Positions 5,595 through 52,362 of a stretch of 64,000 nucleotides of DNA are shown here, piece by piece. The number at the start of each line of letters is the position of its first letter. The stretch's first letter is position 1. The DNA comes from an uncultured Chthonomonas sp. GTDB taxonomy: Bacteria > Armatimonadota > Chthonomonadetes > Chthonomonadales > CAJBBX01. The notes beneath the pieces were generated by a model. The model did not search any database, had not been told where the DNA came from, and saw only the letters and a program-made list of their open reading frames with translations. The stretch covers positions 17,051 to 81,050 of the forward strand of contig CAJBBX010000063.1 in NCBI GenBank assembly GCA_903951425.1, written 5' to 3'. The position numbers and the translations under genes are program-made.

Positions 5595-5627
5595 CCCGGC
5601 ACAGGCCATGCAGCCGCCCCTGACCCG

Positions 5628-6248
5628 CTACGCGGCGGGCTTCATGGGGCGGCCGTTGGCCGTCAACAGGTCGGCGATGCCCTGCATGACGCGGGCCATC
5701 ATCGTCTCGCGGCTGGTTTCCGGTCCGAAGACGAGCGGCTCGCCGAAGACGACCGTGATCTGTGTGGGCTTCAGGCGCTTGGCGCCTGGAGGCCACATGG
5801 CCTCGGGGCCTATGAGGGCGCAGGGCACCACTGGGGCGCCGGACTTCTGCACGATGAGCGCCAGGCCGCCTTCGGCCGGCTGCAGGTTGCCGTCTGGGCT
5901 GCGGGTGCCCTCGGGGAAGAGGACGAGGCCCCACGGCACCTTCAGCACCGCCAGCGCATGCCGGATGGCAGCGCGGTCAGCCGAGTCGCGATGGACGGGG
6001 AAGGCGTGGCTACGGTCCATGAACCAGCCCAGCACGGGCGACTTCCATAGGTCATGCCGGGCCATGTAGGCGCACTCGCGTTTGATACAGGAGCCCACCA
6101 GCGGCGGGTCGAGGTAGCTGACGTGATTCGACGCCACGATGAAGGGGCCGGTCGTCGGGATGTTTGAATGCCCGATGATCCGGGTGCGGCCGACGACCTT
6201 GTAGAAGACCTTGGATGCGGCCCAGCACATCCGGTAGCCGAAGGTCAC
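5628..6248 (-). CDS. plsC: 1-acyl-sn-glycerol-3-phosphate acyltransferase
   Basis: HX4D acyltransferase motif NHVSYLDP and FPEGTRS. The start ATG forms a 4-bp ATGA overlap with the cmk stop. Confidence 0.85.
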   Translation of the reverse strand: MTFGYRMCWAASKVFYKVVGRTRIIGHSNIPTTGPFIVASNHVSYLDPPLVGSCIKRECAYMARHDLWKSPVLGWFMDRSHAFPVHRDSADRAAIRHALAVLKVPWGLVLFPEGTRSPDGNLQPAEGGLALIVQKSGAPVVPCALIGPEAMWPPGAKRLKPTQITVVFGEPLVFGPETSRETMMARVMQGIADLLTANGRPMKPAA

Positions 6249-14052: not shown

Positions 14053-14841
14053 CTAGCCCAGGCCTCGGCCCGCCAGTTCGCGGACCTTGGCGCCGATGTC
14101 GTCGGCCCGCATGAAGGCCTCGCCCACCAGCACGGCGGCCACGCCTGCGCGGGCCAGCTTGACCACGTCGGTGCGGGTGTTGATGCCGCTCTCGCTCACC
14201 ACCATCCGGTCGCTCGGCACCGCGGGCATCAGGTCCAGCGTGGTCTGCAGCGTCGTGCGGAAGAGGTGCAGGTCGCGGTTGTTGATGCCGATGAGGTTGG
14301 CGGGCGTCCTGACGGCGTCCTCCAGCTCGCCTCCGTCGTGGACCTCGACGATGGCGGCCATGCCCAGGGCGCGGCAACCGGCGATCATGTCGAGCAGGGC
14401 GGTGTGGCCCAGGGCGGCCATGATGAGCAGCACGGCGTCGGCGCCCGCCACGCGGGCCTCGATGAGCTGGTACTCGTCGATGATGAAGTCCTTGCGCAGG
14501 AGCGGGAGGCCCACCACGGCCCGGACGTCCGAGAGGTAGGTCAGGTTGCCGTGGAAGTGCCGCTCGTCGGTGAGCACGGAGAGGCATGTGGCGCCGTTGG
14601 CCTCATAGGTCTTCGCGATCTCGACGGGGTCGAAGTCGTACCGGATGATGCCCTTGGAGGGCGAAGCCTTCTTGATCTCGCAGATCAGCGCAGGCCTGGG
14701 CGCGTCGGCGATGGCCTTCACGAAGTCGCGCGGCCGGGCCACGTCGCGCACGCGGCGCTGAAGCTCGCCGATCGCGACGCGCCGCTTGGCCATCTCCACC
14801 TCGGTGCGCTTGTCCGCGAGTATTTCCGATAGAACGCTCAT
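14053..14841 (-). CDS. trpC: Indole-3-glycerol phosphate synthase
   Basis: Track ORF trimmed to the ATG at 14841 (MSVLSEILADKR...), which forms an ATGA overlap with the trpD stop. Motifs are ICEIKKASPSKG, LSVLTD, FLRKDFI and INNRDL. Confidence 0.9.
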   Translation of the reverse strand: MSVLSEILADKRTEVEMAKRRVAIGELQRRVRDVARPRDFVKAIADAPRPALICEIKKASPSKGIIRYDFDPVEIAKTYEANGATCLSVLTDERHFHGNLTYLSDVRAVVGLPLLRKDFIIDEYQLIEARVAGADAVLLIMAALGHTALLDMIAGCRALGMAAIVEVHDGGELEDAVRTPANLIGINNRDLHLFRTTLQTTLDLMPAVPSDRMVVSESGINTRTDVVKLARAGVAAVLVGEAFMRADDIGAKVRELAGRGLG

Positions 14842-15875
14842 GTCTTGCGTAACTCCCCGCAGAGGGTCGTCAGCCGGTTCAACGCGCCGATCGCCCTGCC
14901 GTCCTGTATCACGCGGCGAGCCGCCGTGACGCCCTGCATCCATCCGTCGGCCAGGCCGCACACCTGCAGCGCCGCCGAGGCGTTCGCCAGCACGATGTCC
15001 AGCCGCGGGCCGGGTTCGCCGGCCAGCACGGACCGCAACATCGCCGCGGACTCGGCGGCGTCGGCGCCTCCGGTCAAGTCACCGTGCGAGCAGGCGGCCA
15101 GCCCCAGCCGCTCCGGCGTCACCTCGTCCTCGGCCACCTCGGCGCCGCTGACGCGGACCACCAGGGTGGGCGACGTGAGCGACACCTCGTCCATGCCGTC
15201 GAGGCCGCTGACCACCATCGCCTCGCGCACGCCCAGGCGCTGCAGCGCGCCGGCGACCACGCGGCAGAGGGCGGGATCGAAGACGCCCATCACCTGCCGC
15301 TCCGCGAGGGCCGGGTTGGCCAGCGGCCCCAGTATATTGAAGACTGTGCGCACGCCAAGTTCCCGCCGAAGCGGGCCGACCGCCGCCATGGCCGGGTGGT
15401 GGCGCGGCGCGAACATGAAGCCGATGCCGGCCTCGTCGACGCACCGGGCGATCTGCTCCGGCTGCAGGTCGATGGCCACGCCCAGGGCCTCCAGCACGTC
15501 GGCGCTACCGCAGTGGCCCGAGATGGCCCGGTTGCCGTGCTTGGCTACCGGAACGCCGGCCCCTGCCAGGACGAAGCCCACGGCGGTGGAGACGTTCAGC
15601 GAGCGTGAACCGTCGCCGCCGGTGCCGCAAGTGTCCAGCAGGCACTGCGAGCCAGGCGCCACCCGGACGCACCGGTCGCGCAGCACAGAAGCCATGCCCG
15701 CGACCTCGTCGGCCGTCTCGCCGCGCATCCGCAACGCCGCCAGGAACGCCGCCAACCGCACCGACGCCAGGGAGCCGTCCAGGATGGCCGACATGGCGTC
15801 GGCGGCCCGGTCGTAGCTCAGCGGGACGCCGCTCCACGCCTCGCGCAGCAGCTCCAGGCTCACGTCGCCGCTCAT
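14838..15875 (-). CDS. trpD: Anthranilate phosphoribosyltransferase
   Basis: 345 aa with DTCGTGGDG, NVSTA and KHGNRA motifs. It has a 4-bp overlap with the upstream M24 peptidase stop. Confidence 0.95.
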   Translation of the reverse strand: MSGDVSLELLREAWSGVPLSYDRAADAMSAILDGSLASVRLAAFLAALRMRGETADEVAGMASVLRDRCVRVAPGSQCLLDTCGTGGDGSRSLNVSTAVGFVLAGAGVPVAKHGNRAISGHCGSADVLEALGVAIDLQPEQIARCVDEAGIGFMFAPRHHPAMAAVGPLRRELGVRTVFNILGPLANPALAERQVMGVFDPALCRVVAGALQRLGVREAMVVSGLDGMDEVSLTSPTLVVRVSGAEVAEDEVTPERLGLAACSHGDLTGGADAAESAAMLRSVLAGEPGPRLDIVLANASAALQVCGLADGWMQGVTAARRVIQDGRAIGALNRLTTLCGELRKT

Positions 15876-16963
15876 AGGATAGGCAGTGCCGGCGGCGCGT
15901 TGCGGTTCAGCGATCGACCGCCCTGCTCGGTGACGACCATGCAGTTCTCGATCCGAACACCGAAGCGGCCGTCAAGGTAGACGCCCGGCTCGTTGCTGAA
16001 GCAGTTGCCCGCGGCCAGCGGTTCGGAGTTGCCCTCGGTGATGTAGGGATGCTCATGCCCGGAGAGGCCGATGCCGTGGCCCAGCCGGTGGAAGAAGCGC
16101 GGCCCGTAGCCGGCCTCCTCGATGACGCGGCGGGCTGCGCGGTCAAGATCGCAAGCCGCCGCGCCGGGGCGGCAGGCGCCGTAGACAGCCTCGTGGGCCC
16201 GGCGTACGATGCGGTAGACCTCCACCGCCTCGGGGTCGGGCCGGCCGAAGGCCACCGTGCGGGTGATGTCCGACTGATAGCCCTGCAGGCCGCAGCCGAT
16301 ATCGACGATCACCACGTCGCCGCGCCGCAACCGGGTCTGGTCCGTGGCGTGGTGCGGCATGGCCGAGTTCGGCCCGAAGCCGACGATGCAGAACGTCATG
16401 CTCACGCTGCGCTCACGGTAGGCCGCGGCGATGACCTCCTGCAGCTCCAGCTCAGTCATGCCCTCGCGAAGGGAGCGGAGGGCCAGGTCGCAGACGTCGT
16501 CCGTGATCTCCGCCGATCGCTCGAGCAGGTCCAGCTCATCGGCGCCCTTCACCGTGCGCAGGGCCGACATGGCGCCCGACGCGCTGCGGAAGCGCGCCTG
16601 CGGAAAGAGCTCCTGCATGCGCAGCAGGTGCCCGGCGTGCAGCTCGTCGTCGATGCCCACGCACCCGTCGGCGCCGTCGCCCAGCGCCTGGGCCATGGCC
16701 GCGGCCCATCCGTCGGCGTCGGTCCATGGGATGACGGAGGACATGGAGCGGGCGTTGGAGGAGGCGTCGGCGGCATTCAGGGCGGGCGCGACGATACGGG
16801 CGGCATCGGCGGTCACGACCAGCGCCAGCAGCCGCTCATGCCCGGACTCGGCCCATCCCACGAGGTACCGCATGTGGTCTGTAGGGGCAAGCAGGGCGGC
16901 GTCCAGGCCGCGAGTGGCCATCTGCGCGCGCAGCGCGGCCAGACGTGAAAGGTACGGTTCCAT
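15872..16963 (-). CDS. M24-family Xaa-Pro peptidase (aminopeptidase P / prolidase-like)
   Basis: Pita-bread metal ligands are visible in context: VIVDIGC..GYQSDITRT, HRLGHGIGLSGHE, SNEPGVY and VRIEN. The start is taken at ATG 16963 (MEPYLSRLAALR...); GTG 16984 is also possible. Confidence 0.85.
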   Translation of the reverse strand: MEPYLSRLAALRAQMATRGLDAALLAPTDHMRYLVGWAESGHERLLALVVTADAARIVAPALNAADASSNARSMSSVIPWTDADGWAAAMAQALGDGADGCVGIDDELHAGHLLRMQELFPQARFRSASGAMSALRTVKGADELDLLERSAEITDDVCDLALRSLREGMTELELQEVIAAAYRERSVSMTFCIVGFGPNSAMPHHATDQTRLRRGDVVIVDIGCGLQGYQSDITRTVAFGRPDPEAVEVYRIVRRAHEAVYGACRPGAAACDLDRAARRVIEEAGYGPRFFHRLGHGIGLSGHEHPYITEGNSEPLAAGNCFSNEPGVYLDGRFGVRIENCMVVTEQGGRSLNRNAPPALPIL

Positions 16964-17216
16964 AGCCCGAACATGGTACCCCACCGGGTACGGCGGGGAG
17001 GAGACGAGGGGGTGAAGGGTGCAACGGCGAGGCGGGCAAGGGGATCACTTCTCTGCCGCAGGAAGGCGCTCCCCTTGAGTCCTTCGACGTTTGGGGTGAA
17101 GCCCTGAACTGACACACCGGCATCCGGCAACCGACGCGCCGGCGTTGCCCGGCACGGGCGAAGCACCCGTAGGTGGATCGGCGCCGTCAGCCCGGCCGGC
17201 GCCGTTCTGGCCCTCG

Positions 17217-17780
17217 CTACCCCGCGATGAAGTTGCGCAGCATCTTCTTGCCGGACTGGGTCATGACCGACTCGGGGTGGAACTGGACCCCCTCTACCCG
17301 GCGCTCGCGGTGGCGGACGCCCATGATCTCGCCCTCGTCGGTCTCGGCGGTCACCACGAGGCAGTCGGGAAGGGTCTCTCGCTTGATCACCAGCGAGTGG
17401 TAGCGCGTCACCTCCACGGGGTTGTCCACGCCTCGGAAGACGCCCTGGCCGTCGTGCTTCACCAGGCTGGTCTTGCCGTGGAGGACGCGCCAGTTGCGGA
17501 TGACCTGCCCGCCGAACGCCGCGCCGATGCTCTGGTGGCCCAGGCAGACGCCCAGGATGGGGATGACGCCGGCGAACCGCTGGATCAGCGGCACGGAGAT
17601 GCCCGCCTCAGCCGGGGTGCAGGGGCCGGGCGAGATCACGATGTGCGACGGCGCCAGCTCGGCCACGCCGTCGAGCGTGATGCGGTCGTTGCGATGGACG
17701 GCGATCTCCAGGCCCATCTCGCCGAGGTACTGCACGAGGTTGTAGGTGAAGCTGTCGTAGTTGTCGAGCACCAGGACCAT
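17217..17780 (-). CDS. trpG: Anthranilate synthase component II (glutamine amidotransferase)
   Basis: Trimmed to the ATG at 17780 ([19 protein letters not shown]), 5 nt after the trpE stop. The catalytic triad context is GVCLGHQ and HPES. Confidence 0.9.
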
Positions 17781-17785
17781 TGCGG

Positions 17786-19264
17786 TTACTCCAGGCCCAT
17801 CTCGGCCATTTCGACGGCCTTCATGAGCGCACGGGCCTTGTTGACGCACTCCTGATACTCGCGCGAGGGGTCGCTGTCGGCCACCACCCCGGCGCCTGCC
17901 TGGATGTAGGCCTTGCCCTCCTGCACCAGCATCGTGCGGATGGCGATGGCCAGGTCGGCGTCGCCCCGGTAGCTGAAGTAGCCCACGGCGCCGCCGTAGA
18001 GCCCCCGGCGCGTGGGCTCCAGTTCAGCGATGATCTCCATGGCCCTGATCTTGGGCGCGCCGGTGAGGGTGCCCGCCGGGAAGCAGGCCCGCACGGCGTC
18101 GTACATATCGCACCCGGCGGCCAGCCGCCCGGAGACGCCGCTGACGATGTGCATGACGTGCGAGTAGCGCTCCACGACCATCAGCTCATCCACGGCCACG
18201 GTGCCGTACTCGCAGACGCGGCCGATGTCGTTGCGGCCGAGGTCGACCAGCATGATGTGCTCGGCGCGCTCCTTGGCGTCCTGCAGCAACTCGGTCTCGG
18301 CGGCGGCGTCCTCGTCGGGCGTGGCGCCGCGCGGGCGGGTTCCGGCGATGGGCCGCACCGTGACGCGGCCGTCCTCCACGGTGACCAGGATCTCCGGCGA
18401 CGAACCCACCACCTGCCTCTCGCCGAAGTCCAGGAAATACATGTAGGGCGACGGATTGATGGAGCGCAGCGACCGATAGAGCTCGAACGGAGTGGCCGAG
18501 ACGGTGGCCGTGAAGCGCACCGAGGGCACGACCTGGAAGGCGTCGCCGGCGGCGATGTACTCCTTGGCGCGGTCCACTGCGGCCTCGTAGTCCCACTGCG
18601 TCATGCTGGATGCCACCTCGGGGCGCGCGCCGGAGCCGGAGGGCGCGGCATCCTCGTGAGAGGCGCGCAGCATGGCCACGATGCGGTCGACATGCCGCAC
18701 GGCCTCATCGTAGGCGGCGTCGGCGTCGGCGTCCACGCGGGTGTTGCAGACCACGCGGAGGCGGTGGCGCACATGGTCGAAGACGAGCACTGTATCGGCC
18801 AGCATGAGACAGGCATCGTCCACGCCCAGGTCGTCGCGCGGCGTGCCGGGCAACTCCTCGAAGTGGCGCACCATGTCGTAGGAGAGGTAGCCCACGGCGC
18901 CGCCGCAGAAGCGGGGCAGGCCCGGGTCGGCCACGTACCGGTGCGAGGCCAGCAGGTCGCGCAGCACGGTAAGGGGATCGGCGCCCGGCCCGAGCTCGGC
19001 CTCCTGCGCCTCGCCCTGCCGCCCAATGGTGACCCTGCCTCCGCGGCTCCGGAAGAGGGCCGACGGCGAGCAGCCGATGAAGGAGTAGCGAGCCATGCGC
19101 TCGCCGCCTTCGACGCTCTCCAGCAGGAAGGATGGCCCGGTGGAGGCGATGCGCTCGTAGGCCGAGACGGGCGTCAGGCGGTCGGCCAGTATCTCGCGCC
19201 AAACGGGCGACATGCATCCGGCGGGAGTGCGGCGGACGAACTCGGTTCTGGAGGGCGACACCAT
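17786..19264 (-). CDS. trpE: Anthranilate synthase component I
   Basis: Chorismate-binding motifs are [26 protein letters not shown] and [11 protein letters not shown]. The start is taken at ATG 19264, with AGGAG 9 nt upstream. The track start at 19321 is a TTG. Confidence 0.9.
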
Positions 19265-19328
19265 GCCGGGATGCTCCTGATGGCGCGGAACGGCTGGGCC
19301 GAGCCCGGCGCCGATCCACAATGCTGAG

Positions 19329-19401
19329 TGCCCTGGGAGGGATTCGAACCCACACTAGAGCGATTTTAAGTCGCTTGCCTCTGCCGTTGGGCTACCAGGG
19401 C
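19329..19401 (-). tRNA. 73-nt class-I tRNA with anticodon UAA (Leu UUA by codon table; identity uncertain)
   Basis: Hand-folded cloverleaf on the minus strand: GCCCTGG-TA-GCCC-AACGGCAG-AGGC-A-AGCGA-CTTAAAA-TCGCT-CTAGT-GTGGG-TTCGAAT-CCCTC-CCAGGGC-A. The 7-bp acceptor stem is perfect. GG lies in the D-loop, the T-loop is TTCGAAT, U33 is present and the discriminator is A73. The variable loop is 5 nt. There is one U-U mismatch in the T stem and a C-A at 13-22. No CCA is encoded. Confidence 0.75.
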
Positions 19402-19433
19402 GTGGGCGTCGGCGCTCGCCGCCAGGGTGCGGT

Positions 19434-19462
19434 AGTATAGCGGCAGGCACGAGTGCTGTCAA
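19434..19462 (-). promoter_or_regulatory. Sigma70-type promoter, TTGACA-17 nt-TATACT, driving the tRNA (and possibly trpE)
   Basis: On the minus strand, TTGACA lies at 19462-19457 and TATACT at 19439-19434, with an exactly 17-nt spacer. The -10 box ends 32 nt upstream of the tRNA 5' end. Confidence 0.55.
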
Positions 19463-19578
19463 TGCCGGTTCGTGCTATCGAGCACCCGGGCAGTTGCGTA
19501 TATAATGGTGCAACCGCCGGCCGTTGCGGGCCGCCTGAGGCTCGCACGGCCACACATCCCTACAGGAGTGTCAGCCCA

Positions 19579-20052
19579 ATGATGAAGACGCTTGCAGCGC
19601 TGATCGCCTTCGGCGCCATCTGCACTGCCGCTTACGCCGGCCCAACGACCAAGTCCAAGGCCGCCAAGGACGCTTGTGGCTCGTGCCCGTCGGCCGCAGC
19701 CGCCAAGAAGACCAACGCTCAGTGCCCATCAGCCAAGGCCGACTGCGCCACCTGCCCGTCAGCCAAGGCTACCGCCAAGTCCGACTGCGCCACGTGCCCG
19801 TCCGGTTCGGCCGGAGCCTGCCCCGTCAGCGGCGGCAAGCTCACTTCCGTGAAGTGCGGTGAAGGCTCCAAGAAGATCGACGTCGCCAAGCTCACTGCCG
19901 AGGGAAAGTACGCAGACTACAAGGGCAAGCGCTACTTCTGGGCTTGCGACCACTGCGCCAAGGACTTCAAGGCCAACCCGGCCGGGTACGCCAGCCGGCA
20001 CACCGGCTTCATGGTGAAGACCGCCAAGGTCAGCTCCAAGGCCGCCAACTAG
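19579..20052 (+). CDS. Secreted Cys-rich protein with CxxCPSAKA-type repeats and C-terminal YHS/TRASH-like domain
   Basis: Trimmed to ATGATG at 19579, with CAGGAG 10 nt upstream. The signal peptide is MMKTLAALIAFGAICTAAYA. Repeats are CGSCPSA, CPSAKAD, CATCPSAKA and CATCPSGSAGACPVSGG. The C-terminal motif YKGKRYFWACDHCAKDFKANPAGY resembles the YHS motif Y.G..YYFCS..C...F...P..Y. Confidence 0.7.
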   Translation: MMKTLAALIAFGAICTAAYAGPTTKSKAAKDACGSCPSAAAAKKTNAQCPSAKADCATCPSAKATAKSDCATCPSGSAGACPVSGGKLTSVKCGEGSKKIDVAKLTAEGKYADYKGKRYFWACDHCAKDFKANPAGYASRHTGFMVKTAKVSSKAAN

Positions 20053-30942: not shown

Positions 30943-31721
30943 GCCGGCTGGAGCAAGAGCAGCCGACGGCGACGCAAGCCGCAACCGGACAGGTCGCCGA
31001 GGGTCCACGCAGGTCGCCGCTATTCGACGTCTGCGTGCATGAGGTGAACCTGAACGGCGCCGTGGACGCGGTGAACGGCCTCATCGCCCGGGGTATGCCG
31101 TCGCATGTGGTCACGCTGGACGCCTCCATGTGCGTCGCAGCGCGCCGCGACCTAGAGTTGCGGCGGATCGTCCTGCACGCCGAGTTGGTGACACCCGACA
31201 GCGTCGGCGTCCTCTGGGCCGCCAAGCGCAAGGGCATCGCGCTGACCGACCGGGCCTCCGGCGTGGAGATCTCCGAGCGCCTTTGCGCCGCGTCGGCAGC
31301 CCGCGGGACGCGCATCTTCTTCCTGGGATCCGCTCCCGGCGTGGCCGAGGACGCCGCGATCCGCATGCGCGACCGCTACCCCGGCTGCAACATCGTCGGG
31401 ACCATGCACGGGTACTACGACGCCGTGGAGGAGCGCAACGTACTCCATGCCATCCGTCAGGCAGCGCCCGACGTGCTGCTGGTGGCCTTCGGCATCCCGA
31501 AGCAGGAGAAATGGATCGCACTGCACCGCGAGGCGCTTGGCGTGCCCGTGATGATCGGCGTGGGGGGCAGCCTGGACGTGATGTCGGGCCGCGTGGAGCG
31601 CGCCCCCCAGTGGGCCCGCCGGTTCAACATGGAGTGGCTCTACCGGCTGGCCCAGAACCCCAAGAAGATCGGCAAGGCGCTGGCCTTGCCGCGCTTCGTA
31701 TGGATGGCCCTCACCCGGTGA
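30939..31721 (+). CDS. WecB/TagA/CpsF-family glycosyltransferase (GT26)
   Basis: ATGA overlap with the upstream stop. Motifs are LVTPDSVGVLWAA, RIFFLGS, PDVLLVAFGIPKQEKW, IGVGGSLD and NMEWLYRLAQNPKK. Confidence 0.9.
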   Translation: MSRLEQEQPTATQAATGQVAEGPRRSPLFDVCVHEVNLNGAVDAVNGLIARGMPSHVVTLDASMCVAARRDLELRRIVLHAELVTPDSVGVLWAAKRKGIALTDRASGVEISERLCAASAARGTRIFFLGSAPGVAEDAAIRMRDRYPGCNIVGTMHGYYDAVEERNVLHAIRQAAPDVLLVAFGIPKQEKWIALHREALGVPVMIGVGGSLDVMSGRVERAPQWARRFNMEWLYRLAQNPKKIGKALALPRFVWMALTR

Positions 31722-32226: not shown

Positions 32227-32705
32227 TCGCTGTCCCCCGCGTACCCGATGAGGATGGCCTGCCTGGCGCTCCGCGTGGCGCGCATGCCCTCGTACCCGGC
32301 GTCATCAGCCGGATCCGGAGCGGGCAGCACGTCGGCGGCCATGCGGACGATCCGCACCTCATCCTCGGGCGCCAGGGTCAGGTTCTGCGCGGGCTGCTGC
32401 GGCCTAAGCGCAACCAGCGCCAGGGCAGCGGCGGCAGCGGCGGTGAGGGCAAAGGCATACCATGGCCGTCCGGTCGCACGTTGCGGCGCGGTCGTGCGAA
32501 TGCGCTCGTAGAGGCCCGGCCAGAGGTCCGGCGAGGTCGGCTCCGCACGGAGCGGCGCCAGGCTCTCCAGAAGGGCCATCTCTTCGCGCAGCAGGAGGGC
32601 GCACCGGGCACATTTGGCAGTGTGCGCGGCGATGGGCTCTGCCAGTTCAGGTCGGCGACCCTGCAGCCAGGCCGCCGAGCTCTTCTCCAAATCCCTGCAG
32701 TTCAT
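32223..32705 (-). CDS. zf-HC2 anti-sigma factor, single-pass membrane
   Basis: H-x3-C-x2-C motif (AHTAKCARCA), then the TM WYAFALTAAAAAALALVAL. It has a 4-bp overlap with the sigma factor stop. Confidence 0.75.
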   Translation of the reverse strand: MNCRDLEKSSAAWLQGRRPELAEPIAAHTAKCARCALLLREEMALLESLAPLRAEPTSPDLWPGLYERIRTTAPQRATGRPWYAFALTAAAAAALALVALRPQQPAQNLTLAPEDEVRIVRMAADVLPAPDPADDAGYEGMRATRSARQAILIGYAGDSE

Positions 32706-33313
32706 GGGACCGTCCTTTTGTAACCGTCTTCCAGCTTCGCCTTGAGCCGCTGCCTGGCGCGGGCCAGGCGTGTCTTGAGCACGGTGTAGGAGACGCCGGT
32801 GATGGCCTGCATCTCCTCGTAGTCGCGCTCCTCCAAGTAGTAGAGCACGATGAGCATACGATCGCTCTCATTGAGCTGACCGATCGCTTCACGTATCTGG
32901 CGCGCCTGATCTTCCCTTTCCAGGGTGTTCAGGGCGTCAGTCTCCGCGCTGCCCAGGGACCCGCGCTCCAACTGCCGCTCGTCCGGCCATGCCTCTTGCG
33001 GCCGGGCCATCTTGCGGCTGTGTGCGTCGCGCGCCAGGTTGGCGGCGATGCGGTACAGCCACGTCGAGACCTTGGCCCGGTACTGGAACCGACCGGCGTG
33101 CTGCCAGGCCTTGGTGAACACATCCATCGCGGCCTCTTCAGCATCCTCCCGGGACCCGCTCATGCGGTAGAGGAAGCGGAATATGGGCGCCTGGTACCTG
33201 CGCGTCAGCTCGCGGAGGGCTTGCTGGTCGCCGGAGGCGCAGCAACGCAGCACATCCTCATCGGGGAGGATCTGAAGGTCGCCGACCGACTTCTCGGTAC
33301 GCCCCAAGCGCAT
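32702..33313 (-). CDS. ECF-type RNA polymerase sigma-70 family factor
   Basis: Region 2 is IFRFLYRMSGSREDAEEAAMDVFTKAW. Region 4 is LNESDRMLIVLYYLEERDYEEMQAITGVSYTVLKTRLARARQRL. The start is taken at ATG 33313; 33382 and 33466 are alternatives. Confidence 0.85.
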   Translation of the reverse strand: MRLGRTEKSVGDLQILPDEDVLRCCASGDQQALRELTRRYQAPIFRFLYRMSGSREDAEEAAMDVFTKAWQHAGRFQYRAKVSTWLYRIAANLARDAHSRKMARPQEAWPDERQLERGSLGSAETDALNTLEREDQARQIREAIGQLNESDRMLIVLYYLEERDYEEMQAITGVSYTVLKTRLARARQRLKAKLEDGYKRTVP

Positions 33314-33576
33314 TAAGTCATCCGACGCGTGCGCCGTAGTTCCATATCGCCACGCCAATGGTTGGTCTGTCCAAGGTGCCATCACGCTCACCGTCGCGCC
33401 CCGCCTCGCGGAGCCCAGTCTACTGGTGTAGACGGACCCTCGCTTCTGCGGAAACACGACACCCAACGGCGCCCAGAACGGTCTACTATTGTACTGCCTC
33501 GAAACCCGACGCGCTCGAATACCGTAGTGCGCCCGAGTCCCAATCCATGCGGCAGGTGCCGCGCCCCGGGGGTGAG

Positions 33577-45235: not shown

Positions 45236-48200
45236 ATGATCCATGTTCTCGTGTATGTGATGGCGCTCATCTCCGCTGCCGGTCTGGCGCAGGGGCCGAC
45301 CGCCGGGCGACGCGACGGCATGGTGCGCGTACCGGGCGGGACCTTCACCATGGGCGCGGAGGTGGCCGATTGCCCGGACGCTTACCCGCGACATCAGGTA
45401 ACGCTGCGCCCGTACTGGATCGACAAGTGCGAGGTGACGCAGGCCGAGTACGCGGGGTTCTGCCGGGCGACGGGCCACACGGCGCCCATCACATGGCGCG
45501 GAGGGGCGCCCCAGCCGGGACGGGAGCGGTGGCCGGTGACCAACGTTACCTGGCACGATGCAGATGCTTACGCCGCATGGGCCGGCAAGCGGCTACCCAC
45601 CGAGGCCGAGTGGGAGTACGCCGCGCGATCGGCGGACGGCCGCACCTACCCGTGGGGCGAACCCGCGCCCAAGGGCATGGCCGCGCTGGAGGACGAGCCG
45701 GCGCTGGGCTCCGTGGGGCGGTTCGTGGCTGGGGCCTCGCCGTTCGGATGCCTCGACATGACCGGCAACGTCTGGGAGTGGGCCCAGGACTGGTACGGCC
45801 CCTATCCGGAGACGGGACCGCGCACCGACCGGGCCACCCAGGCCATGGGCCCGACGGTCTTCTCGCCGCTCTCAGTCCACTACGGCCGCAAGTACAAGGC
45901 GCTGCGGGGCGGCGGGGCCATCGGCTACTACGGCGCACCCAACCTGGGCAGGACCTTTGACCGAGGCAGGGCCGTTCCCTACGGGTGCTACGACGGAACG
46001 GGCTTCCGCTGCGCGGCAGACGACGAGTCCCGAGCTCCGCGGACGGCCGACGGGGCCCAACCCACGCGCGTCCGGCACGCTCCACGGGTCGTCGCCATGC
46101 CGCCGGCGAAGGCCTCAGTGCCGCTCACGATCACCGAGGAGGCCGGTGTGCGGCGCGACGGTGAGATTGTCCGTAGCGGATTACCCTTCCCGCAGGGCTA
46201 CCTGAAGGACGTCGGACGACTGGCGCTGGTCGGGACGAACCGACAGCCCGTGCCGCTACGCGCATCCATCACCGACCGATGGCGCGACGGTAGCGTGCGT
46301 TGGGCCCTGCTGGAGTTCCCCACAAGCGTGGGCGCGAGCGCGACCGCCACCGTGCGGCTGGAGACGAACGCCCCCGCACGACGGCGCGCGCCGATGCCGC
46401 AACCGACCGCTGCACTCCGGGCGGCCCTCGGCGCGGTCCGATGGCGGGTCGCGGCGGATGGCCGGACCCAGACCGTGCAGCCTCGCCCCGGCGACGCCGC
46501 CATCGGTCCCATCACGTTCGGGACAGGTGATCCCCTGTTCCAGTTGGCATCGCAACAGCGCCTCTGCTCAGCCGACGGCGCGGCCGTCGACATCACAGCC
46601 ACGCTGACGCGACGCGGCGCCGCCGCCATGGCTTCGCTGACGGGCTGGCAGATGGAGATTGAGCTACCGGCCACGCCCGTGGCGGCCATGCTCGGCAACT
46701 CGAACGGCGGCATCCGGCTTGCGGGCAGGGCTGCGTCCTCATTGCTGCTTGAGCAGATCGACTCTGAGACCTGCCGCGTGCGTGTTACCGGACGTCCCGA
46801 CGTCGCATGGACCCGAGCGCCGGGCTGGATCGCGCTTCGCTGCGGCGACCGGTGGATCGGCATCGCCATGGAGGAGTTCTGGCAGCAGGCCCCCGCCACG
46901 ATCAGGGTCGAAGGCCGGCGGCTCAACATCGGTTTCGACGGGAGCCGCGAGGCCTTCGAGGCCGACCGAGGCATCGCCAAGACGCTCCGTTTCCGCATTG
47001 CTGCCCATGCCGGTCTGGAGGCTTGCGTCGAGCGGCTGAAGGCCCTGCAGGCGCCGCTCATGGCAGTGGCAAGCCCCGAGTGGAACTGCGGCTCCAGAGC
47101 GCTGGGAGACCTGGCCCCCTATGACCTGGACCGCTTCCCCACCTACGAAACGCGGGTGGCCGCCGAGTTCGACCGGTGGATTCGCAAGCGGCCCTACGGG
47201 TTCCGGAACTGGGGCGACGCCTACATGGGCGGGCCATATAAAGGCAAGAACGCCTACGCCAACCTCGAATACGACATTCCGTATGACTTCGCCATGCAGT
47301 TTGCACGGACCGGCAACCTCCGCGTCCTGCGGGCCGCCATCGCCACGGCGAGGCACCAGGCCGATATTGACACGAACCATGAGACAGGCCTGCCGTGGAA
47401 ACACAGCCCGCGGCACACCGAGACCGAGGCCGAACTGGGCCATGTCTTCGTGCGCGGCCTCATCGCCTGGTGGCATCTGACCGGCGACCGGCGCGGCCTC
47501 GACGTGGCCCACCAGATCGGACTGCGCATCGCCGACGACCTGGTACACAACCGCGGCGTAGGCAACGAGCGCCAGATCGGCTGGAGTCTCTACGCGCTGA
47601 CGGCCGTCTACGCGGCCCACGGCGACGAGCGCTGCATTGCGGGCATCCGGACACTGGTGGACCGCCTCTGGGCGGGTCAGGAGCCCACAGGCAGGTTCGC
47701 CATCCGCTACGACAACCGCATCGCCTTCTTCAACGGCCTGGCCATGGCCGGCCTGCGCGAGGCCTACGACGCCACCGGCGACGAGCGCGCCGCCACCATG
47801 GCCCTGCGTCTCGCCGAACGCACGCTGGGCTTCCGCCCGGAGTACGCCGGCCGCACACTGGATAGCCTGGCGTGGGCCTACGACCGCACGGGTGACGCCC
47901 GGTTCCTCGACAACGCGGAGCGCACCTGGGAGACGACGCAGGAGTACCTGGGCACGCGCCAGTGGGGACCCGACAGCACGCTCTTCGCCACCCGCTACCT
48001 GCCATTCCTGAAGCGCCTCGGCATGGCGCCGATGGGCAAATCCCCACTGTGCCTCACGCCGGCGCAGTGCGACACCGCCAATGGGCTCTACCTGACGCAT
48101 CTGGCGCGGCCATCCGCCGGCGTGGCAATCCTGGACAGGACCGGCAGGCCATTCCGCATCGCCATCATACGCCACGGCAGTCTGGACCCGGCGACCTGCC

Positions 48201-48766
48201 TTCTCACGGCCACAGGACGCACGGTGGCCCTCATCCGGTTCGGCGCCTCGCCGGAGGCAGGCGTGCGCCGGACCGTGCGCGTGCCGGCAGGCCCGTCGGG
48301 GCGCGTGCTGCGGCTGGCCCTGACCTCGAAGCAGTCGCAGGGATGGGATATCGTCACCGACAGGGCGATGCCGCGGGTCGTGGAGGTCGCGGACCTGGGG
48401 ATTCTCGACCGCCTCGTGCCCCGCGTCTTCTGCGCCGCCACGGGAAAGCGCATCCGCCTGACACTCAGGGCCAAGGGCGAGGGCTTCCACGGAGCGGTAA
48501 TCAGCCGGCCCGACGGATCGATCGCGGCGCTGGGCAGGCGCTTCGTTGACTTCGGCGACAACGCCGCCTACACCTTCACGGTGGAGGCGCCCGTCCCCGC
48601 CGGTGTGCGCGGTAGGCTGTGGCAGGTGGACCTGCAGGACGCCGAGGTCATCGCCGCCGAGGGCCTCGCCGCCCACGCCGCCTGCAGCCGGGCCGCGTGG
48701 TTCGCGGTCCCGGCTGCGCGGGGCTCGCGCTACTCCCGGCAGATCACCCGGAAGCCCACGTTGTAG
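45236..48766 (+). CDS. Secreted fusion: N-terminal FGE-sulfatase (SUMF1-like) domain plus large PcRGLX/YetA-like domain
   Basis: The signal peptide is MIHVLVYVMALISAAGLA. The FGE-type block is MVRVPGGTFTMG, VTNVTWHDADAYAAWAGKRLPTEAEWEYAAR, TGNVWEWAQDW and GFRCA. Downstream, RWRDGSVRWALLEFP and NWGDAY..NLEYD..HQADIDTNH resemble the PcRGLX-like RIFT-barrel and (alpha/alpha)6 region. That second assignment is tentative. Confidence 0.8.
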   Translation: MIHVLVYVMALISAAGLAQGPTAGRRDGMVRVPGGTFTMGAEVADCPDAYPRHQVTLRPYWIDKCEVTQAEYAGFCRATGHTAPITWRGGAPQPGRERWPVTNVTWHDADAYAAWAGKRLPTEAEWEYAARSADGRTYPWGEPAPKGMAALEDEPALGSVGRFVAGASPFGCLDMTGNVWEWAQDWYGPYPETGPRTDRATQAMGPTVFSPLSVHYGRKYKALRGGGAIGYYGAPNLGRTFDRGRAVPYGCYDGTGFRCAADDESRAPRTADGAQPTRVRHAPRVVAMPPAKASVPLTITEEAGVRRDGEIVRSGLPFPQGYLKDVGRLALVGTNRQPVPLRASITDRWRDGSVRWALLEFPTSVGASATATVRLETNAPARRRAPMPQPTAALRAALGAVRWRVAADGRTQTVQPRPGDAAIGPITFGTGDPLFQLASQQRLCSADGAAVDITATLTRRGAAAMASLTGWQMEIELPATPVAAMLGNSNGGIRLAGRAASSLLLEQIDSETCRVRVTGRPDVAWTRAPGWIALRCGDRWIGIAMEEFWQQAPATIRVEGRRLNIGFDGSREAFEADRGIAKTLRFRIAAHAGLEACVERLKALQAPLMAVASPEWNCGSRALGDLAPYDLDRFPTYETRVAAEFDRWIRKRPYGFRNWGDAYMGGPYKGKNAYANLEYDIPYDFAMQFARTGNLRVLRAAIATARHQADIDTNHETGLPWKHSPRHTETEAELGHVFVRGLIAWWHLTGDRRGLDVAHQIGLRIADDLVHNRGVGNERQIGWSLYALTAVYAAHGDERCIAGIRTLVDRLWAGQEPTGRFAIRYDNRIAFFNGLAMAGLREAYDATGDERAATMALRLAERTLGFRPEYAGRTLDSLAWAYDRTGDARFLDNAERTWETTQEYLGTRQWGPDSTLFATRYLPFLKRLGMAPMGKSPLCLTPAQCDTANGLYLTHLARPSAGVAILDRTGRPFRIAIIRHGSLDPATCLLTATGRTVALIRFGASPEAGVRRTVRVPAGPSGRVLRLALTSKQSQGWDIVTDRAMPRVVEVADLGILDRLVPRVFCAATGKRIRLTLRAKGEGFHGAVISRPDGSIAALGRRFVDFGDNAAYTFTVEAPVPAGVRGRLWQVDLQDAEVIAAEGLAAHAACSRAAWFAVPAARGSRYSRQITRKPTL

Positions 48767-51700
48767 ACGGTCTGCCACGGGGCGTAGGACAGGCGGTACG
48801 AGGCCGTGCAGCGGGCCGGACGGTCGTACCAACTGCCGCCGCGCACGACTCGCTCGGCGGCCGGGTCCGTGGCCGCATCGCCGCCGCCGGGCCGCCGCGT
48901 GTAGACCGAGCGGGTCCATTCCGCCACGTTCCCGTGCATGTCGTGCAGCCCCCAGGGGTTGGGCGCGAAGGAGCCGGCATCGGTCGGCAGCAGGGCGCCG
49001 TCGCTGAAGCGCGTCTCCTTGGGCGACCAGTCGAGCAGCGGGTCGGGGTTGGCCACGGGCTTCGGATCGATGCCCGCCACGGCCAGCGCGGTGAGGCTCT
49101 GGTCGGCCATGTTGGCCGCCCGGCCGAAGTCTGTGTCTAGTCCGCCGAACCAGAAAGGCCCCGCGCTGCCCGCCCGGCAGGCGTACTCCCACTGCGTCTC
49201 TGTGGGCAGGTCGAACTTGAGGCCCGTCTTCCGGCTGAGCCAACGGGCGAAGCGGTCCGCCTCGGCCCAGGTGACCCGGACAGCAGGCTGGTTCGGGCGA
49301 TCCATTGGGTAACCGCGCGAGGTGTGGTCCTTGTTACGCATACCGATGACGCCGTTGTCGTGCCGCGGATCGAAGCGGGCATACTGGGCGTTGGTCGTCT
49401 CCGTGACGGCCATCCAGAAGCCCTTGTCCACGCGCCGCGCGGCCATGGGACGCTCGTCCAGCGCGCCGTTGTTCGACCCCATGACGAAGGCGCCCGGCGG
49501 CACGTAGGTGAGCCGCAGCTTCACGCCGTTCCCAAGGTCAACCACGCGCGAAGCCCTGTGGGACGCCCGCTTGCGCGCGGCGACGTCGGGTCCGAAGGGC
49601 CATCCGGCGGGATTGGCCTGGGCAGGTTGCGCAGGCGCCTCGGGCATGGGTGAGACCTCAGCCGACGGCGGAAGATCGGGCGGCATGGCCTCGTGGTCGA
49701 TATCCGAGCCGCCGTACTTCTGTGCCAGCTCCATCATGCGGCGGTTGCGCTCAGGCGCGGCGCCGTTCTGCGCGGTCCAGGTACCGTGGCACGGCACGTT
49801 CAGGTCGATCCAGGTGTAGAGGCGGTCCCAAGCCTCGGGCGCCAGCTTCACGCCGTGGTGGCCCTTCTTCAGCATCTGAACCAGCTCGCTGGTGCCGGCG
49901 TCCCACTCGCGCGGGCGCTGCAGGTGGTAGTCGCTCTCGTTGCCGGGGCGGCGGACGAAGCGGTGCAGGGCCTCGTAGGCGGGCGTGAAGGCGCCTCGGT
50001 AGTTGGCCACGGCGGCGCGGGCACGGAGGTCCGGCCGCCCTGGGGTCCCGCTGTGGCAGCTGACGCAGTAGCGTTGCAGCACCGGAGCCTGTACCTCGCG
50101 CTCGAAGCCGAAGCCACGCGCTGGACCGAACCAGGGCGCGATCTTGGCCGGGACCATCCCCTCGGGCCGGGGCCGCCGCAGGCCGGGGGCGCTGCTCTGG
50201 GGCTCGTGGCAGCCCTGGCAGGTGGCGAACTCGCCGGGCATGGCCGTATACCAGGAGCGCATGACCTGAAGCGCCTTGCCCTCGGCGTCCAGCGGCTGCA
50301 CAACCAGCGGCAGGTTCGCCGGCGCGGTGAAGAGGGCCGAACCACGGGAGTTCACCGGCACGGTGCCGAGAATGCGCTTAACGTCCCAGGGGCCGTCGAT
50401 ACCTACATTCACATGACCGCCCATGCCGCGGTAGCCGTAGTGGTTGGCGTAGACGCGCAGCGACTTCACGGTTCCGCGCGGCACGCCCTTGAGGCCCGGT
50501 CCGCGGTAGACGTCAGCCAGGAAGATGGTGGCGCTCTTCTGGGCGACCTTGGCGCGGTCGGGCGTGGCCGGCGGCATGGGTCGCGCCATCACAGGCACAG
50601 GCTCCAGCAGCGCGTATCCAGGCTCCTCGGCCAGGCAGACGAGGTTGTCGAACACGTCGGCCAAATAGATGCCCCAGGGCCGCCCGGCGGGCTGGCACGA
50701 GACGAGGAAGTACTTCTCGCTGAGCGGGAAGGGGTGCAGGAAGCGAGGCGAGGTCGTCTCAACCAGTTGGTCGCGGATGATCGGATCCACTCGCTTGCCG
50801 AAGCCGGGCACGCGCTGCACCACGCCGGACGCCTCGTGGCGGCCGCGGGCAGGGTCGAGTACCATCAGTTCGCCCATGCGCGGCACGCCGTGGTGGCCCG
50901 AGACGATGGCTGTGAGCTTGCTGGGATGGCCGGGCACGGGCCGCGCATAGAAGAGCGAGTTGGGCCAGAAGCTGTTGGACCCATACTCCTCCATCTGGTT
51001 GGAGCCGTCCGGGTTCATCTTGAAGAGCAGGCGCGAGAAGTAGTGCGGCGTGTCGCTGTACTCCCACCGGGTGTAGAGCACCTGGCCGTTGTTGAGCACG
51101 CGCGGGTACCAGCTGTGGTCCTGGTCGTAGGTCAGTTGCCTTGCCGAACCCGACTTCGGGTCGAGGAGGTAGAGCGAACCGACCGAGTCGCCGCCGCCCA
51201 CGCAGGGCACGCCGATGTAGCAGGCCGTGGAGCAGTAGACGATGCGGCCGTCGGGCAGGTAGGCGCCGCTGTAGTTGTCCACATCCGGCTCTTCGCCCGG
51301 TGTCACCTGTCGCGGCTCGCCGCCCTCCGTCGGCATCTCGAAGAGCTGGAAGCGGTCGTGCGTGCCAGGCATGGATAGGAGGAGGCGCCGGGCGTCCCAG
51401 TGCGGCTCCAGATCGCCCACGAAGGCCCCGCCCTGCGGCTGGTAGACCACCGACCGGGCGCCAGTGGCGATAGAGAGCCGCTCGATGCGGTTATCGTAGC
51501 CCCGTGCGGGGATGGAGGAGTTCCCCTGCCAGTTCTGCGGCAGGCCCATCAGCTTCTCGGACCGGCGCACGAGGAGCAGTTTGTCGAACCGGAGTAGCGG
51601 GTTCGCCAGCAGGGCCTCGCGGCGCAGGGCGGCCAATTCGGCTACGGCGGCATCGCGGCCTCCTTCGGGCCCCTTGGTGATCGCCGCGCAGAGGCTGTCG

Positions 51701-52362
51701 ATCCTGGCCAGGTAGGTGGCGCCCTTCGGGTAGCCCGCGCCATGCTGGGCCATCAGGTCGCGGACCGCGCGGCGCAGGGCCGGCACCGGGAAGCCCGCCA
51801 CGGCGGAGACGGGATCGATGACATCGCCCGCCGAGGCATCGCCGTCGAGCCGGAAGAAGAACCCCGAGCCGCCCGAGATGTTGTAGACCTTGGCCAGCAG
51901 CCGGTTCTCGCCCGTCCGGAGCGGCAAGGCCAGGCTGTCCTGGTCAGGCGCGGTCACTCGCGGCACATCGTTGGCCAGGAGGCGCACGCCGTTGAGCCAG
52001 ACCGCCAGTCCGTCATCGCTGCCGAACCGCGCCATGACCGTGCGCGCCGCAGGCGAGGTGATGGTCCGCATCAGGTAGGCGGAGCCGTTGTCCGGCAGGC
52101 CCAGATCGTGCGATTGGCCGTCCGGCATGTCGCGCTTCACCCAGCTGACGCCGGCCACGGGCTCGGCGCACGAGACCGAGCGCTCCGGCCCGAACTCCAC
52201 GGCGAAGCCCCGCCCCTCGGTAGGCGTGAACGGCCCGGCCACGTACCAGGAGCCCATGGTGAGCGTTGGCTTTGGGGCCGCCGGGCGCTTCGCGGGCTTC
52301 GGCGCCGCCAGCATGGAAAAGAGGGCGACAGTCGCCGCGATGCAGGCCGAACGAACTAGCAT
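48730..52362 (-). CDS. Secreted 1210-aa multidomain protein: PA14-like, HzsA-like beta-propeller/middle region, two CxxCH motifs, C-terminal FGE-sulfatase-type domain
   Basis: ATG at 52362 with GGAG upstream, and a signal peptide. The PA14-like block is FGSDDGLAVWLNGVRLL...NRLLAKVYN. CQGCH lies at 50206-50220 and CVSCH at 50053-50067. The C-terminal block is YVPPGAFVMGS, VRVTWAEADRFARWLS, LPTETQWEYACRAG, HGNVAEWT, RGGSW and GFRV. Confidence 0.85.
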   Translation of the reverse strand: MLVRSACIAATVALFSMLAAPKPAKRPAAPKPTLTMGSWYVAGPFTPTEGRGFAVEFGPERSVSCAEPVAGVSWVKRDMPDGQSHDLGLPDNGSAYLMRTITSPAARTVMARFGSDDGLAVWLNGVRLLANDVPRVTAPDQDSLALPLRTGENRLLAKVYNISGGSGFFFRLDGDASAGDVIDPVSAVAGFPVPALRRAVRDLMAQHGAGYPKGATYLARIDSLCAAITKGPEGGRDAAVAELAALRREALLANPLLRFDKLLLVRRSEKLMGLPQNWQGNSSIPARGYDNRIERLSIATGARSVVYQPQGGAFVGDLEPHWDARRLLLSMPGTHDRFQLFEMPTEGGEPRQVTPGEEPDVDNYSGAYLPDGRIVYCSTACYIGVPCVGGGDSVGSLYLLDPKSGSARQLTYDQDHSWYPRVLNNGQVLYTRWEYSDTPHYFSRLLFKMNPDGSNQMEEYGSNSFWPNSLFYARPVPGHPSKLTAIVSGHHGVPRMGELMVLDPARGRHEASGVVQRVPGFGKRVDPIIRDQLVETTSPRFLHPFPLSEKYFLVSCQPAGRPWGIYLADVFDNLVCLAEEPGYALLEPVPVMARPMPPATPDRAKVAQKSATIFLADVYRGPGLKGVPRGTVKSLRVYANHYGYRGMGGHVNVGIDGPWDVKRILGTVPVNSRGSALFTAPANLPLVVQPLDAEGKALQVMRSWYTAMPGEFATCQGCHEPQSSAPGLRRPRPEGMVPAKIAPWFGPARGFGFEREVQAPVLQRYCVSCHSGTPGRPDLRARAAVANYRGAFTPAYEALHRFVRRPGNESDYHLQRPREWDAGTSELVQMLKKGHHGVKLAPEAWDRLYTWIDLNVPCHGTWTAQNGAAPERNRRMMELAQKYGGSDIDHEAMPPDLPPSAEVSPMPEAPAQPAQANPAGWPFGPDVAARKRASHRASRVVDLGNGVKLRLTYVPPGAFVMGSNNGALDERPMAARRVDKGFWMAVTETTNAQYARFDPRHDNGVIGMRNKDHTSRGYPMDRPNQPAVRVTWAEADRFARWLSRKTGLKFDLPTETQWEYACRAGSAGPFWFGGLDTDFGRAANMADQSLTALAVAGIDPKPVANPDPLLDWSPKETRFSDGALLPTDAGSFAPNPWGLHDMHGNVAEWTRSVYTRRPGGGDAATDPAAERVVRGGSWYDRPARCTASYRLSYAPWQTVYNVGFRVICRE

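Follow-up and report, generated by a model that had tools for sequence, protein, structure and literature searches.

The 64-kb window analyzed here (the whole stretch of 64,000 nucleotides of contig CAJBBX010000063.1, from an uncultured Chthonomonas sp.) carries, upstream of a tryptophan biosynthesis cluster, a tRNA gene with the anticodon UAA and a short variable loop, and we examined this gene, its relatives and its decoding role. ARAGORN called a tRNA-Leu(taa) at 19328..19401 on the minus strand and found no second tRNA in the 64-kb window. The Rfam RF00005 match at 19401..19329 spanned the full model (58.4 bits for a gathering score of 29, E = 4.8e-10), and no other Rfam family reached its gathering score in the window. 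The cloverleaf gene at this position is a real tRNA. On the minus strand, the 5' part of the RNA is GCCCUGG-UA-GCCC-AACGGCAG-AGGC-A-AGCGA-CUUAAAA and the part after the anticodon loop is UCGCU-CUAGU-GUGGG-UUCGAAU-CCCUC-CCAGGGC-A. We observed an acceptor stem GCCCUGG/CCAGGGC, a 7-nt anticodon loop C-U-UAA-A-A with UAA at positions 34-36, the discriminator A73 and the variable loop CUAGU, which at 5 nt is not the long variable arm (>10 nt) canonical for class II. The original prediction, made from the letters of this DNA, had placed the 73-nt cloverleaf, its acceptor stem, its two loops and A73 correctly; its UAA anticodon holds in both the ARAGORN call and the Rfam alignment, and the U-U mismatch that it saw in the T stem is U50·U64, to which a second non-Watson-Crick pair, C13·A22, has to be added. 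The GC content is about 0.70 throughout the window. The minimum free energy of the tRNA was -26.9 kcal/mol (z = -1.97) and the corresponding structure was not a perfect cloverleaf. Thermodynamic folding alone is weak evidence here, and the case for this tRNA therefore rests on covariance models and on covariation and comparative data. The features of the locus and of its surroundings are presented in Table 1.

Table 1. Position and basis of the features of the 64-kb window that are discussed in the text.
Feature	Coordinates	Strand	Basis or remark
Type I (short variable loop) tRNA-Leu(UAA), 73 nt, CCA not encoded	19329..19401	minus	ARAGORN, Rfam, model R1 and alignment A1
Promoter-like TTGACA, 17 nt, TATACT	19434..19462	minus	consensus scan, 11/12 consensus matches; putative function
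Spacer from tRNA 3' end to trpE start codon, 64 nt	19265..19328	minus	Shine-Dalgarno-like AGGAG before ATG
trpE, anthranilate synthase component I, 492 aa, ATG at 19264	17786..19264	minus	ORF list and Pfam
M24 peptidase-like gene	15872..16984	minus	Creatinase_N and Peptidase_M24
AT-rich near-palindrome with TATAAT, TTGCGTATATAATGGTGCAA	19494..19513		ahead of the YHS-domain gene
Small secreted-looking YHS-domain protein	19580..20052	plus	repeated Cys motifs CPSAKADCATCPSAKATAKSDCATCP
Sigma-factor-like ORF	32702..33466		one TTA in it or just before it
1,176-aa ORF	45236..48766		N-terminal sequence FGE-sulfatase-like by eye only
1,210-aa protein	48730..52362	minus	hydrazine-synthase-alpha middle domain (PF18582) and C-terminal FGE-sulfatase domain

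To place this tRNA among others, contigs representing one genome per species were scanned with a tRNA pattern (anticodon loop CUUAAAA, variable loop of 4-6 nt, T-loop GGUUCGAAUCC). The scan gave at least 120 loci, designated below by L numbers, and all counts for the UAA family are among the matches listed. ARAGORN called a class I tRNA(UAA) in at least 111 loci, all with one body, namely GCCCCCGUAGCCCAAY(Y)GGCAGAGGCA, the anticodon arm, an NCAGU variable loop, the T arm and A73. By their record labels, the carriers belong to at least 10 phyla. Actinomycetota contributed most matches (Nonomuraea, Nocardia, Microbacterium, Leucobacter, Kocuria, Corynebacterium, Gordonia, Lentzea, Bifidobacteriaceae and others), and the tRNA was also found in Chthonomonadales, Planctomycetota, Rokubacteria/Methylomirabilia, Acidobacteriota, picocyanobacteria, Obscuribacteraceae, Christensenellaceae, Coriobacteriia, Chloroflexota, Myxococcota and Verrucomicrobia. 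In addition, the family consensus had 176 near-full-length BLAST matches in phage genomes, where the annotated ones were called tRNA-Leu.

We then aligned the 93 distinct UAA sequences (alignment A1). Standard pairing was observed in 99.2 % of the 1,860 helix cells, and both-side (compensatory) changes were present at 18 of the 20 helix pairs, the remaining two being fixed by the search pattern. None of 500 shuffles reached the observed pairing and covariation, and slid partners were paired in 35-53 % of cases. Taken together, these results point to purifying selection on the cloverleaf of the UAA family. Positions U8, C13, A14, G18, G19 and A22 were invariant in A1, and A15, A46, G47 and U48 were present in at least 90 %; the anticodon loop and the T loop UUCGAAU were fixed by the search pattern, so their invariance is uninformative. 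A73 was found in 101 of 102 distinct family sequences, and CCA was encoded in 25 of 111 genes, making its absence the norm. The window tRNA aligned in A1 without anomaly and keeps every invariant or nearly invariant position of the family. Its U50·U64 pair was also present in L012, L032, L099, L102 and L115, and the proteins of its Chthonomonadales relatives are only about 50-60 % identical to those of the window; this recurrence marks the mismatch as a lineage trait and not as decay.

Two loci of the scan showed peculiarities of their own. The complete genome of Timonella sp. A28 (L067) has two class I tRNA(UAA) genes, at 3095-3167 and 4992-5064, 1.9 kb apart and differing at position 1 only; in one copy C1 lies opposite C72, the first pair is broken, and this copy may be a damaged duplicate. 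Near the class I tRNA-Leu of bacterium AMR_MDS_1220 (L102), ARAGORN called a tRNA-Ile(UAU) of 92 nt (3344-3435), a tRNA-Thr(CGU) of 83 nt (4865-4947) and a tRNA-Lys(UUU) of 89 nt (5547-5635). These isotypes are usually class I, and the three genes have long insertions in the variable region, which could be introns, allo-tRNA-like genes or artefacts.

Bacterial tRNA-Leu is class II according to textbooks, and the original prediction had started from this premise. A 2023 review of tRNA identity treats it in the same way. The premise is outdated, since Streptomyces coelicolor has, besides four tRNA-Leu species of type II, a single species of type I, tRNA-Leu(CAA) (Fan, Huang, Ji and Wang, Nucleic Acids Res 2019, PMC6614811; hereafter Fan et al., 2019). 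The variable loop of this tRNA has 5 nt (A44-C45-A46-G47-C48), and the only leucyl-tRNA synthetase (LeuRS) of the organism leucylates both types, with a kcat/Km of 6.25 s-1 uM-1 for type I and 14.2 s-1 uM-1 for type II (Fan et al., 2019). In the same work, five nucleotides were the shortest variable loop for good leucylation, and the A14U change in the U8:A14 pair reduced leucylation to 14 %. Because this type I tRNA-Leu(CAA) is leucylated in S. coelicolor, a bacterial class I tRNA-Leu is a known kind.

To connect the UAA family with this tRNA, we analyzed class I tRNAs with the CAA anticodon. A metagenome scan with the CAA version of the pattern gave at least 120 loci (L123-L242, on contigs without taxonomy), and a class I tRNA(CAA) was present in 101 of 120 among the matches listed. 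Outside the anticodon arm, the CAA consensus is the UAA-family molecule. A covariance model, R1, was built solely from 54 class I tRNA(CAA) sequences and all groups of tRNAs were scored with it. The window tRNA reached 86.2 bits (E = 8e-23), compared to about 86-97 bits for the training members themselves and mostly 76-90 bits for the other UAA family members (L113, 72.8; L062, 66.9; L011, 61.5). Class I Leu tRNAs with other anticodons scored 52-70 bits, identified non-Leu tRNAs at most 52.6 bits (the highest being a tRNA-Cys), unidentified matches in tRNA arrays up to 56.2 bits, and the class II E. coli leuZ 47.3 bits. The original prediction had allowed that covariance-model scoring might call the gene a pseudogene, and neither the Rfam score nor the R1 score does so. 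A second R1 match in the window, at 31594..31661 (10.9 bits, E = 0.9), was discarded as noise. Overall, these comparisons indicate one large conserved family whose members have UAA or CAA as anticodon, or CAG, GAG or UAG in certain lineages.

The CAA-scan loci, together with L023 and L026, include many dense tRNA arrays (516 tRNAs in 120 loci, and more than 20 in L026). The class I Leu tRNAs of these arrays carry several anticodons and the arrays look phage-like or mobile; such arrays could be a route for the spread of the short-form tRNA-Leu.

We next examined whether the rest of the molecule speaks for leucine. The LeuRS identity set of E. coli consists of A73, A14, A15-U48, G18G19 and U54-A58 (Fan et al., 2019). 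The full set is present in the window tRNA, with A14 in the U8:A14 pair, and in the family the 15-48 tertiary pair covaries, G15 occurring with C48 in L038 and L066. We took the non-helical D-arm positions 13-22 as the D-core (CAACGGCAGA in the window) and calculated edit distances to it by isotype. Median distances were 1-3 to the class I tRNAs with UAA, CAA, CAG, GAG and UAG, 3 to tRNA-Val and to class II tRNA-Leu, and at least 4 to all other isotypes, with Gln at 4 and with Phe and Ser most distant, tied at 6. The original prediction had likened the body to tRNA-Phe or to a Gln-type tRNA; the D-core lies nearest to class I tRNA-Leu instead, and the anticodon is UAA. GAA for PheRS, and a central U as in UUG/CUG for GlnRS, are identity nucleotides. 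The anticodons UAA, CAA, CAG, GAG and UAG, found on one body, share nothing but leucine.

Genomic arrangements were in line with these results. In L062 (Candidatus Obscuribacteraceae, 1905-2220), class I tRNAs with UAA, CAG, CAA and GAG stand in tandem, with near-identical D and T arms and variable loops of a type that differs from the others (GUUUC/GGUUC), and four further loci have the same combination of class I Leu anticodons. Single contigs showed two arrangements: three loci have the S. coelicolor combination, a class I CAA gene beside a class II UAA gene, and other loci have sets composed of class I genes only. In L012, L035 and L050, from Rokubacteria and Acidobacteriota, the order Gly(GCC)-Cys(GCA)-class I tRNA(UAA) is that of the annotated E. 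coli glyW-cysT-leuZ operon, so that the class I tRNA occupies the leuZ slot. As a separate observation, L062 may represent an independent lineage in which every Leu isoacceptor is short-form.

The residue read at TTA was analyzed by comparing the open reading frames (ORFs) of all carrier loci and of the window with the ORFs of all fetched loci. Subjects using the same codon were dropped, which distorts the values for very common codons (e.g., TTC), and only Leu codons are compared for that reason. At 92 TTA sites in carriers, most of them from carriers of 45-58 % GC, the mean fraction of aligned Leu was 0.55 and that of Phe 0.05, with a Leu majority at 59 sites. After the same treatment, the Leu fraction was 0.54 for TTG, 0.47 for CTG, 0.49 for CTC, 0.56 for CTT and 0.61 for CTA. 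These alignments indicate that TTA stands for leucine in carrier genomes, as in standard usage. In a published screen of the genetic code in more than 250,000 genomes, the sense reassignments found in bacteria concerned Arg codons only, and there was no reassignment of UUA. The window's own TTA sites (6-8) fall at C-termini, at positions that vary or in what may be N-terminal over-extensions, and are uninformative on the residue read; the one close to a P-loop is aligned with Val of HPr kinases, at a weak E-value of 0.05.

A side observation concerns three GC-rich actinobacterial loci, L082 (6083-7424, minus strand), L116 (4576-5902, minus strand) and L121 (4161-5643, plus strand), whose orthologous ORFs have TTA at the same two positions, five codons apart. 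In remoter homologues, one of these positions is mostly Thr/Ile and the other Phe/Leu.

Several results weigh against the assignment of the window tRNA to leucine. In the GC-rich carriers only, the 15 TTA sites (about 10 independent) gave a Leu fraction of 0.31 and a Phe fraction of 0.16; this test is weak because the TTA sites are few and lie at variable positions. Plain D-arm identity (positions 8-26, global alignment, 62 other tRNAs) did not single out Leu either, being undiscriminating because stem letters dominate it. A first regex signature of the body had been non-specific, and was replaced by the D-core comparison and the covariance model. Moreover, the link to the S. coelicolor tRNA is made through published features (the variable loop ACAGC) and through the CAA family, not by direct sequence comparison. 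Finally, the Streptomyces type I tRNA was not charged by E. coli LeuRS, and its charging needs features of the leucine-specific domain of Streptomyces LeuRS (Fan et al., 2019); the LeuRS gene of the present organism lies outside the window.

With these points taken into account, the window gene very probably encodes a functional tRNA-Leu of type I. Its transcription would start at a strong sigma-70-type promoter of its own, and the transcript would mature through RNase P cleavage, processing of the 3' end and addition of CCA. The organism's LeuRS would then charge it with leucine, and the tRNA would decode UUA and, probably via U34 wobble, UUG. Expression, leucylation in this organism and the codons actually read are inferred; the precedent is the S. 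coelicolor tRNA-Leu(CAA), which is of this family's kind and has been shown biochemically to be a LeuRS substrate. Of the four possibilities offered in the original prediction, an unusual LeuRS substrate is the one that the evidence supports; two others, a mischarging or recoding tRNA and a decaying paralogue, are not borne out, for the reasons given below.

The promoter-like element upstream of the tRNA ends 32 nt before its position 1, and one such site was found compared to 0.0 expected in shuffles. TTGACN-17/18-TATACT elements also precede the tRNA in three Chthonomonadales relatives, L032, L099 and L115. Among 124 family loci, they occurred in these three and in the window and were absent from the other 120, for a background of 0.0009 per 120 nt. 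The conservation of this near-consensus promoter suggests a strong constitutive transcription of the tRNA.

Downstream, the genes are arranged on one strand in the order trpE-trpG-(M24 peptidase-like)-trpD-trpC-trpF-small ORF-trpB-trpA; their Pfam families were taken from the called genes of the identical contig L001 (an ENA metagenome assembly). Using tblastn, we observed the order tRNA then trp genes in the Chthonomonadales contigs L032 and L099 as well, with TrpG 58-62 % identical, and a TrpE fragment of 74 % identity in L103. In L115, trpE is immediately 3' of the tRNA. The tRNA-Leu(UAA) and its promoter thus precede trpE in all four contigs (window 14053-19462, minus strand; L032 2226-6666; L099 4045-8000; L115 205-1929). 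No terminator-like site was found in 18900..19900, including the tRNA-trpE spacer, and co-transcription of the tRNA and the trp operon as one transcript is possible from this layout. The 64-nt spacer had no unusual fold (z = 0.04 compared to shuffles), and no conserved sequence was seen in it across the Chthonomonadales-type contigs compared.

Other genes around the tRNA are noted for completeness. The M24 peptidase-like gene is inserted between trpG and trpD, and the same insertion is present in the trp clusters of L032 and L099 (43-49 % identity). The YHS-domain gene is divergent from the tRNA, and the near-palindrome ahead of it is conspicuous in a region of 70 % GC. The 1,176-aa ORF adjoins the gene for the 1,210-aa protein. 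Glycoside hydrolases and enzymes of similar kinds are encoded in the remainder of the window, where we found no gene for a LeuRS or an integrase and no phage gene. A reading of the tRNA as part of a mobile element or as an attachment site was rejected on the absence of nearby integrase and phage genes and on the conserved synteny.

The alternative that survives best is that of a regulatory rare-codon tRNA-Leu similar to bldA of Streptomyces, whose abundance would gate the translation of a few TTA-containing genes. This role is compatible with a functional tRNA-Leu, and we consider it unlikely here. As the original prediction had expected, TTA is rare in this GC-rich window, and it does occur, as that prediction had noted, as codons 5 and 38 of the ORF that begins at 62666. 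It accounts for 6 of 19,207 codons in 37 GC3-filtered ORFs (0.35 % of about 1,720 Leu codons), which is as rare as in Streptomyces, and one TTA falls within a sigma-factor-like ORF or immediately before it. However, another TTA is found in the housekeeping trpD of the window, a tRNA with U34 would read TTG as well, a much commoner codon (6 % of Leu codons), and the near-consensus promoter, kept in relatives, suggests constitutive transcription. The family also occurs in genomes of 45-55 % GC with common TTA, which makes it a general decoder as a family, and it is a type II tRNA that has the regulatory role in Streptomyces (Fan et al., 2019).

We regard as quite improbable a role in the processing or the leader of the trp transcript, in which excision of the co-transcribed tRNA would determine where the trp mRNA begins or how abundant it is. 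The short same-strand distance to trpE with no terminator between, and the conservation of both arrangement and promoter in four Chthonomonadales-type contigs, speak for this proposal. Elsewhere, however, the same tRNA stands in many unrelated contexts, including tRNA operons, which makes the link to trp secondary. The spacer is also devoid of conserved sequence and unusual structure.

Mischarging or recoding, in which the class I body would be charged by another synthetase (e.g., PheRS) and UUA read wholly or partly as another residue, is very improbable. It could draw on the class I shape, on A35, A36 and A73, which are common to tRNA-Phe, and on 2 TTA sites, out of about 12 independent ones in the GC-rich subset, at which Phe was the majority residue. 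Leu was nevertheless the second commonest residue at both of these sites, and at the 92 carrier sites TTA behaved like the other Leu codons. The D-core is farthest from tRNA-Phe (tied with Ser), U34 replaces the G34 of GAA, the anticodons found on the same body have only leucine in common, and the code screen contains no reassigned UUA. In addition, leucylation in vitro has been shown for a tRNA of this kind with the CAA anticodon (Fan et al., 2019). In its ambiguous version, the class I tRNA(UAA) of the GC-rich lineage would be partly charged by another synthetase and UUA would be read, for example, as both Leu and Phe; we give this version an equally slight chance, noting that the counter-evidence comes mainly from lower-GC carriers and that about 12 independent GC-rich sites are not decisive. 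The least credible alternative, to which we attach next to no probability, is a decaying, unused paralogue of a canonical tRNA-Leu that has lost its variable arm, as C13·A22, U50·U64 and the missing CCA might suggest, but C13 and A22 are invariant family-wide, U50·U64 is shared with five other loci, no position that is invariant or nearly so in the family has been lost, the independent model R1 gives a high score, promoter and synteny are conserved and most family genes encode no CCA.

For the functional type I tRNA-Leu that we favor, the window locus itself would be an ordinary UUA/UUG decoder, already labelled tRNA-Leu by annotation pipelines, with no pointer to recoding. The broader result lies in the distribution of the family, a much likelier novelty than ambiguous UUA decoding. 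Together, the two scans yielded over 200 genes for type I tRNA-Leu with UAA or CAA. Type I tRNA-Leu appears, from these genes and the phage matches, to be widespread: its carriers include many phages and bacteria of at least 10 phyla, and in some cases all Leu isoacceptors are of this type. Our search of the searchable literature for a broad distribution of type I tRNA-Leu returned only Fan et al. (2019), where the form is called rare and its recognition by LeuRS unique to Streptomyces. The present distribution suggests that tolerance of LeuRS for short-variable-loop substrates is common, and that the loss of the variable arm, or the spread of the short form, has been repeated in evolution. 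This has a bearing on the recognition of tRNA by LeuRS and on the design of orthogonal Leu pairs.

We finally compared the window tRNA with four known systems. E. coli leuZ shares with it UAA, A73, A14, A15-U48, G18G19 and a 3-bp D stem with an N13·A22 mismatch, and stands after Gly(GCC)-Cys(GCA), as the class I tRNA does in L012, L035 and L050. In contrast, leuZ has a 16-nt variable arm and a total length of 87 nt, and its score against R1 is low. Streptomyces bldA is also a tRNA-Leu(UAA) and the sole cognate decoder type for a very rare TTA in a GC-rich genome, but it is type II, with a 17-nt variable loop, and developmentally regulated, whereas the window promoter looks constitutive. Human mitochondrial tRNA-Leu(UUR) has the anticodon UAA. 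It is type I with A73 and is charged by a LeuRS of bacterial type, but it is organellar, has a relaxed structure and is not charged by S. coelicolor LeuRS (Fan et al., 2019); unlike it, the class I family described here keeps all the canonical tertiary nucleotides of the D-loop and T-loop. The fourth system is the S. coelicolor tRNA-Leu(CAA), which has U8:A14, G18G19, A73 and a variable loop of 5 nt in common with the window tRNA; this loop is CUAGU in the window, ACAGC in S. coelicolor and NCAGU in the family. The type I species of S. coelicolor reads CAA and its UAA isoacceptor is type II, whereas the window tRNA is UAA, and the hosts are an actinomycete and a Chthonomonadales-like member of the Armatimonadota, respectively; charging of the window tRNA is proposed by analogy. 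What is new here is the UAA anticodon and a new phylum in a kind of tRNA already shown to be a LeuRS substrate.

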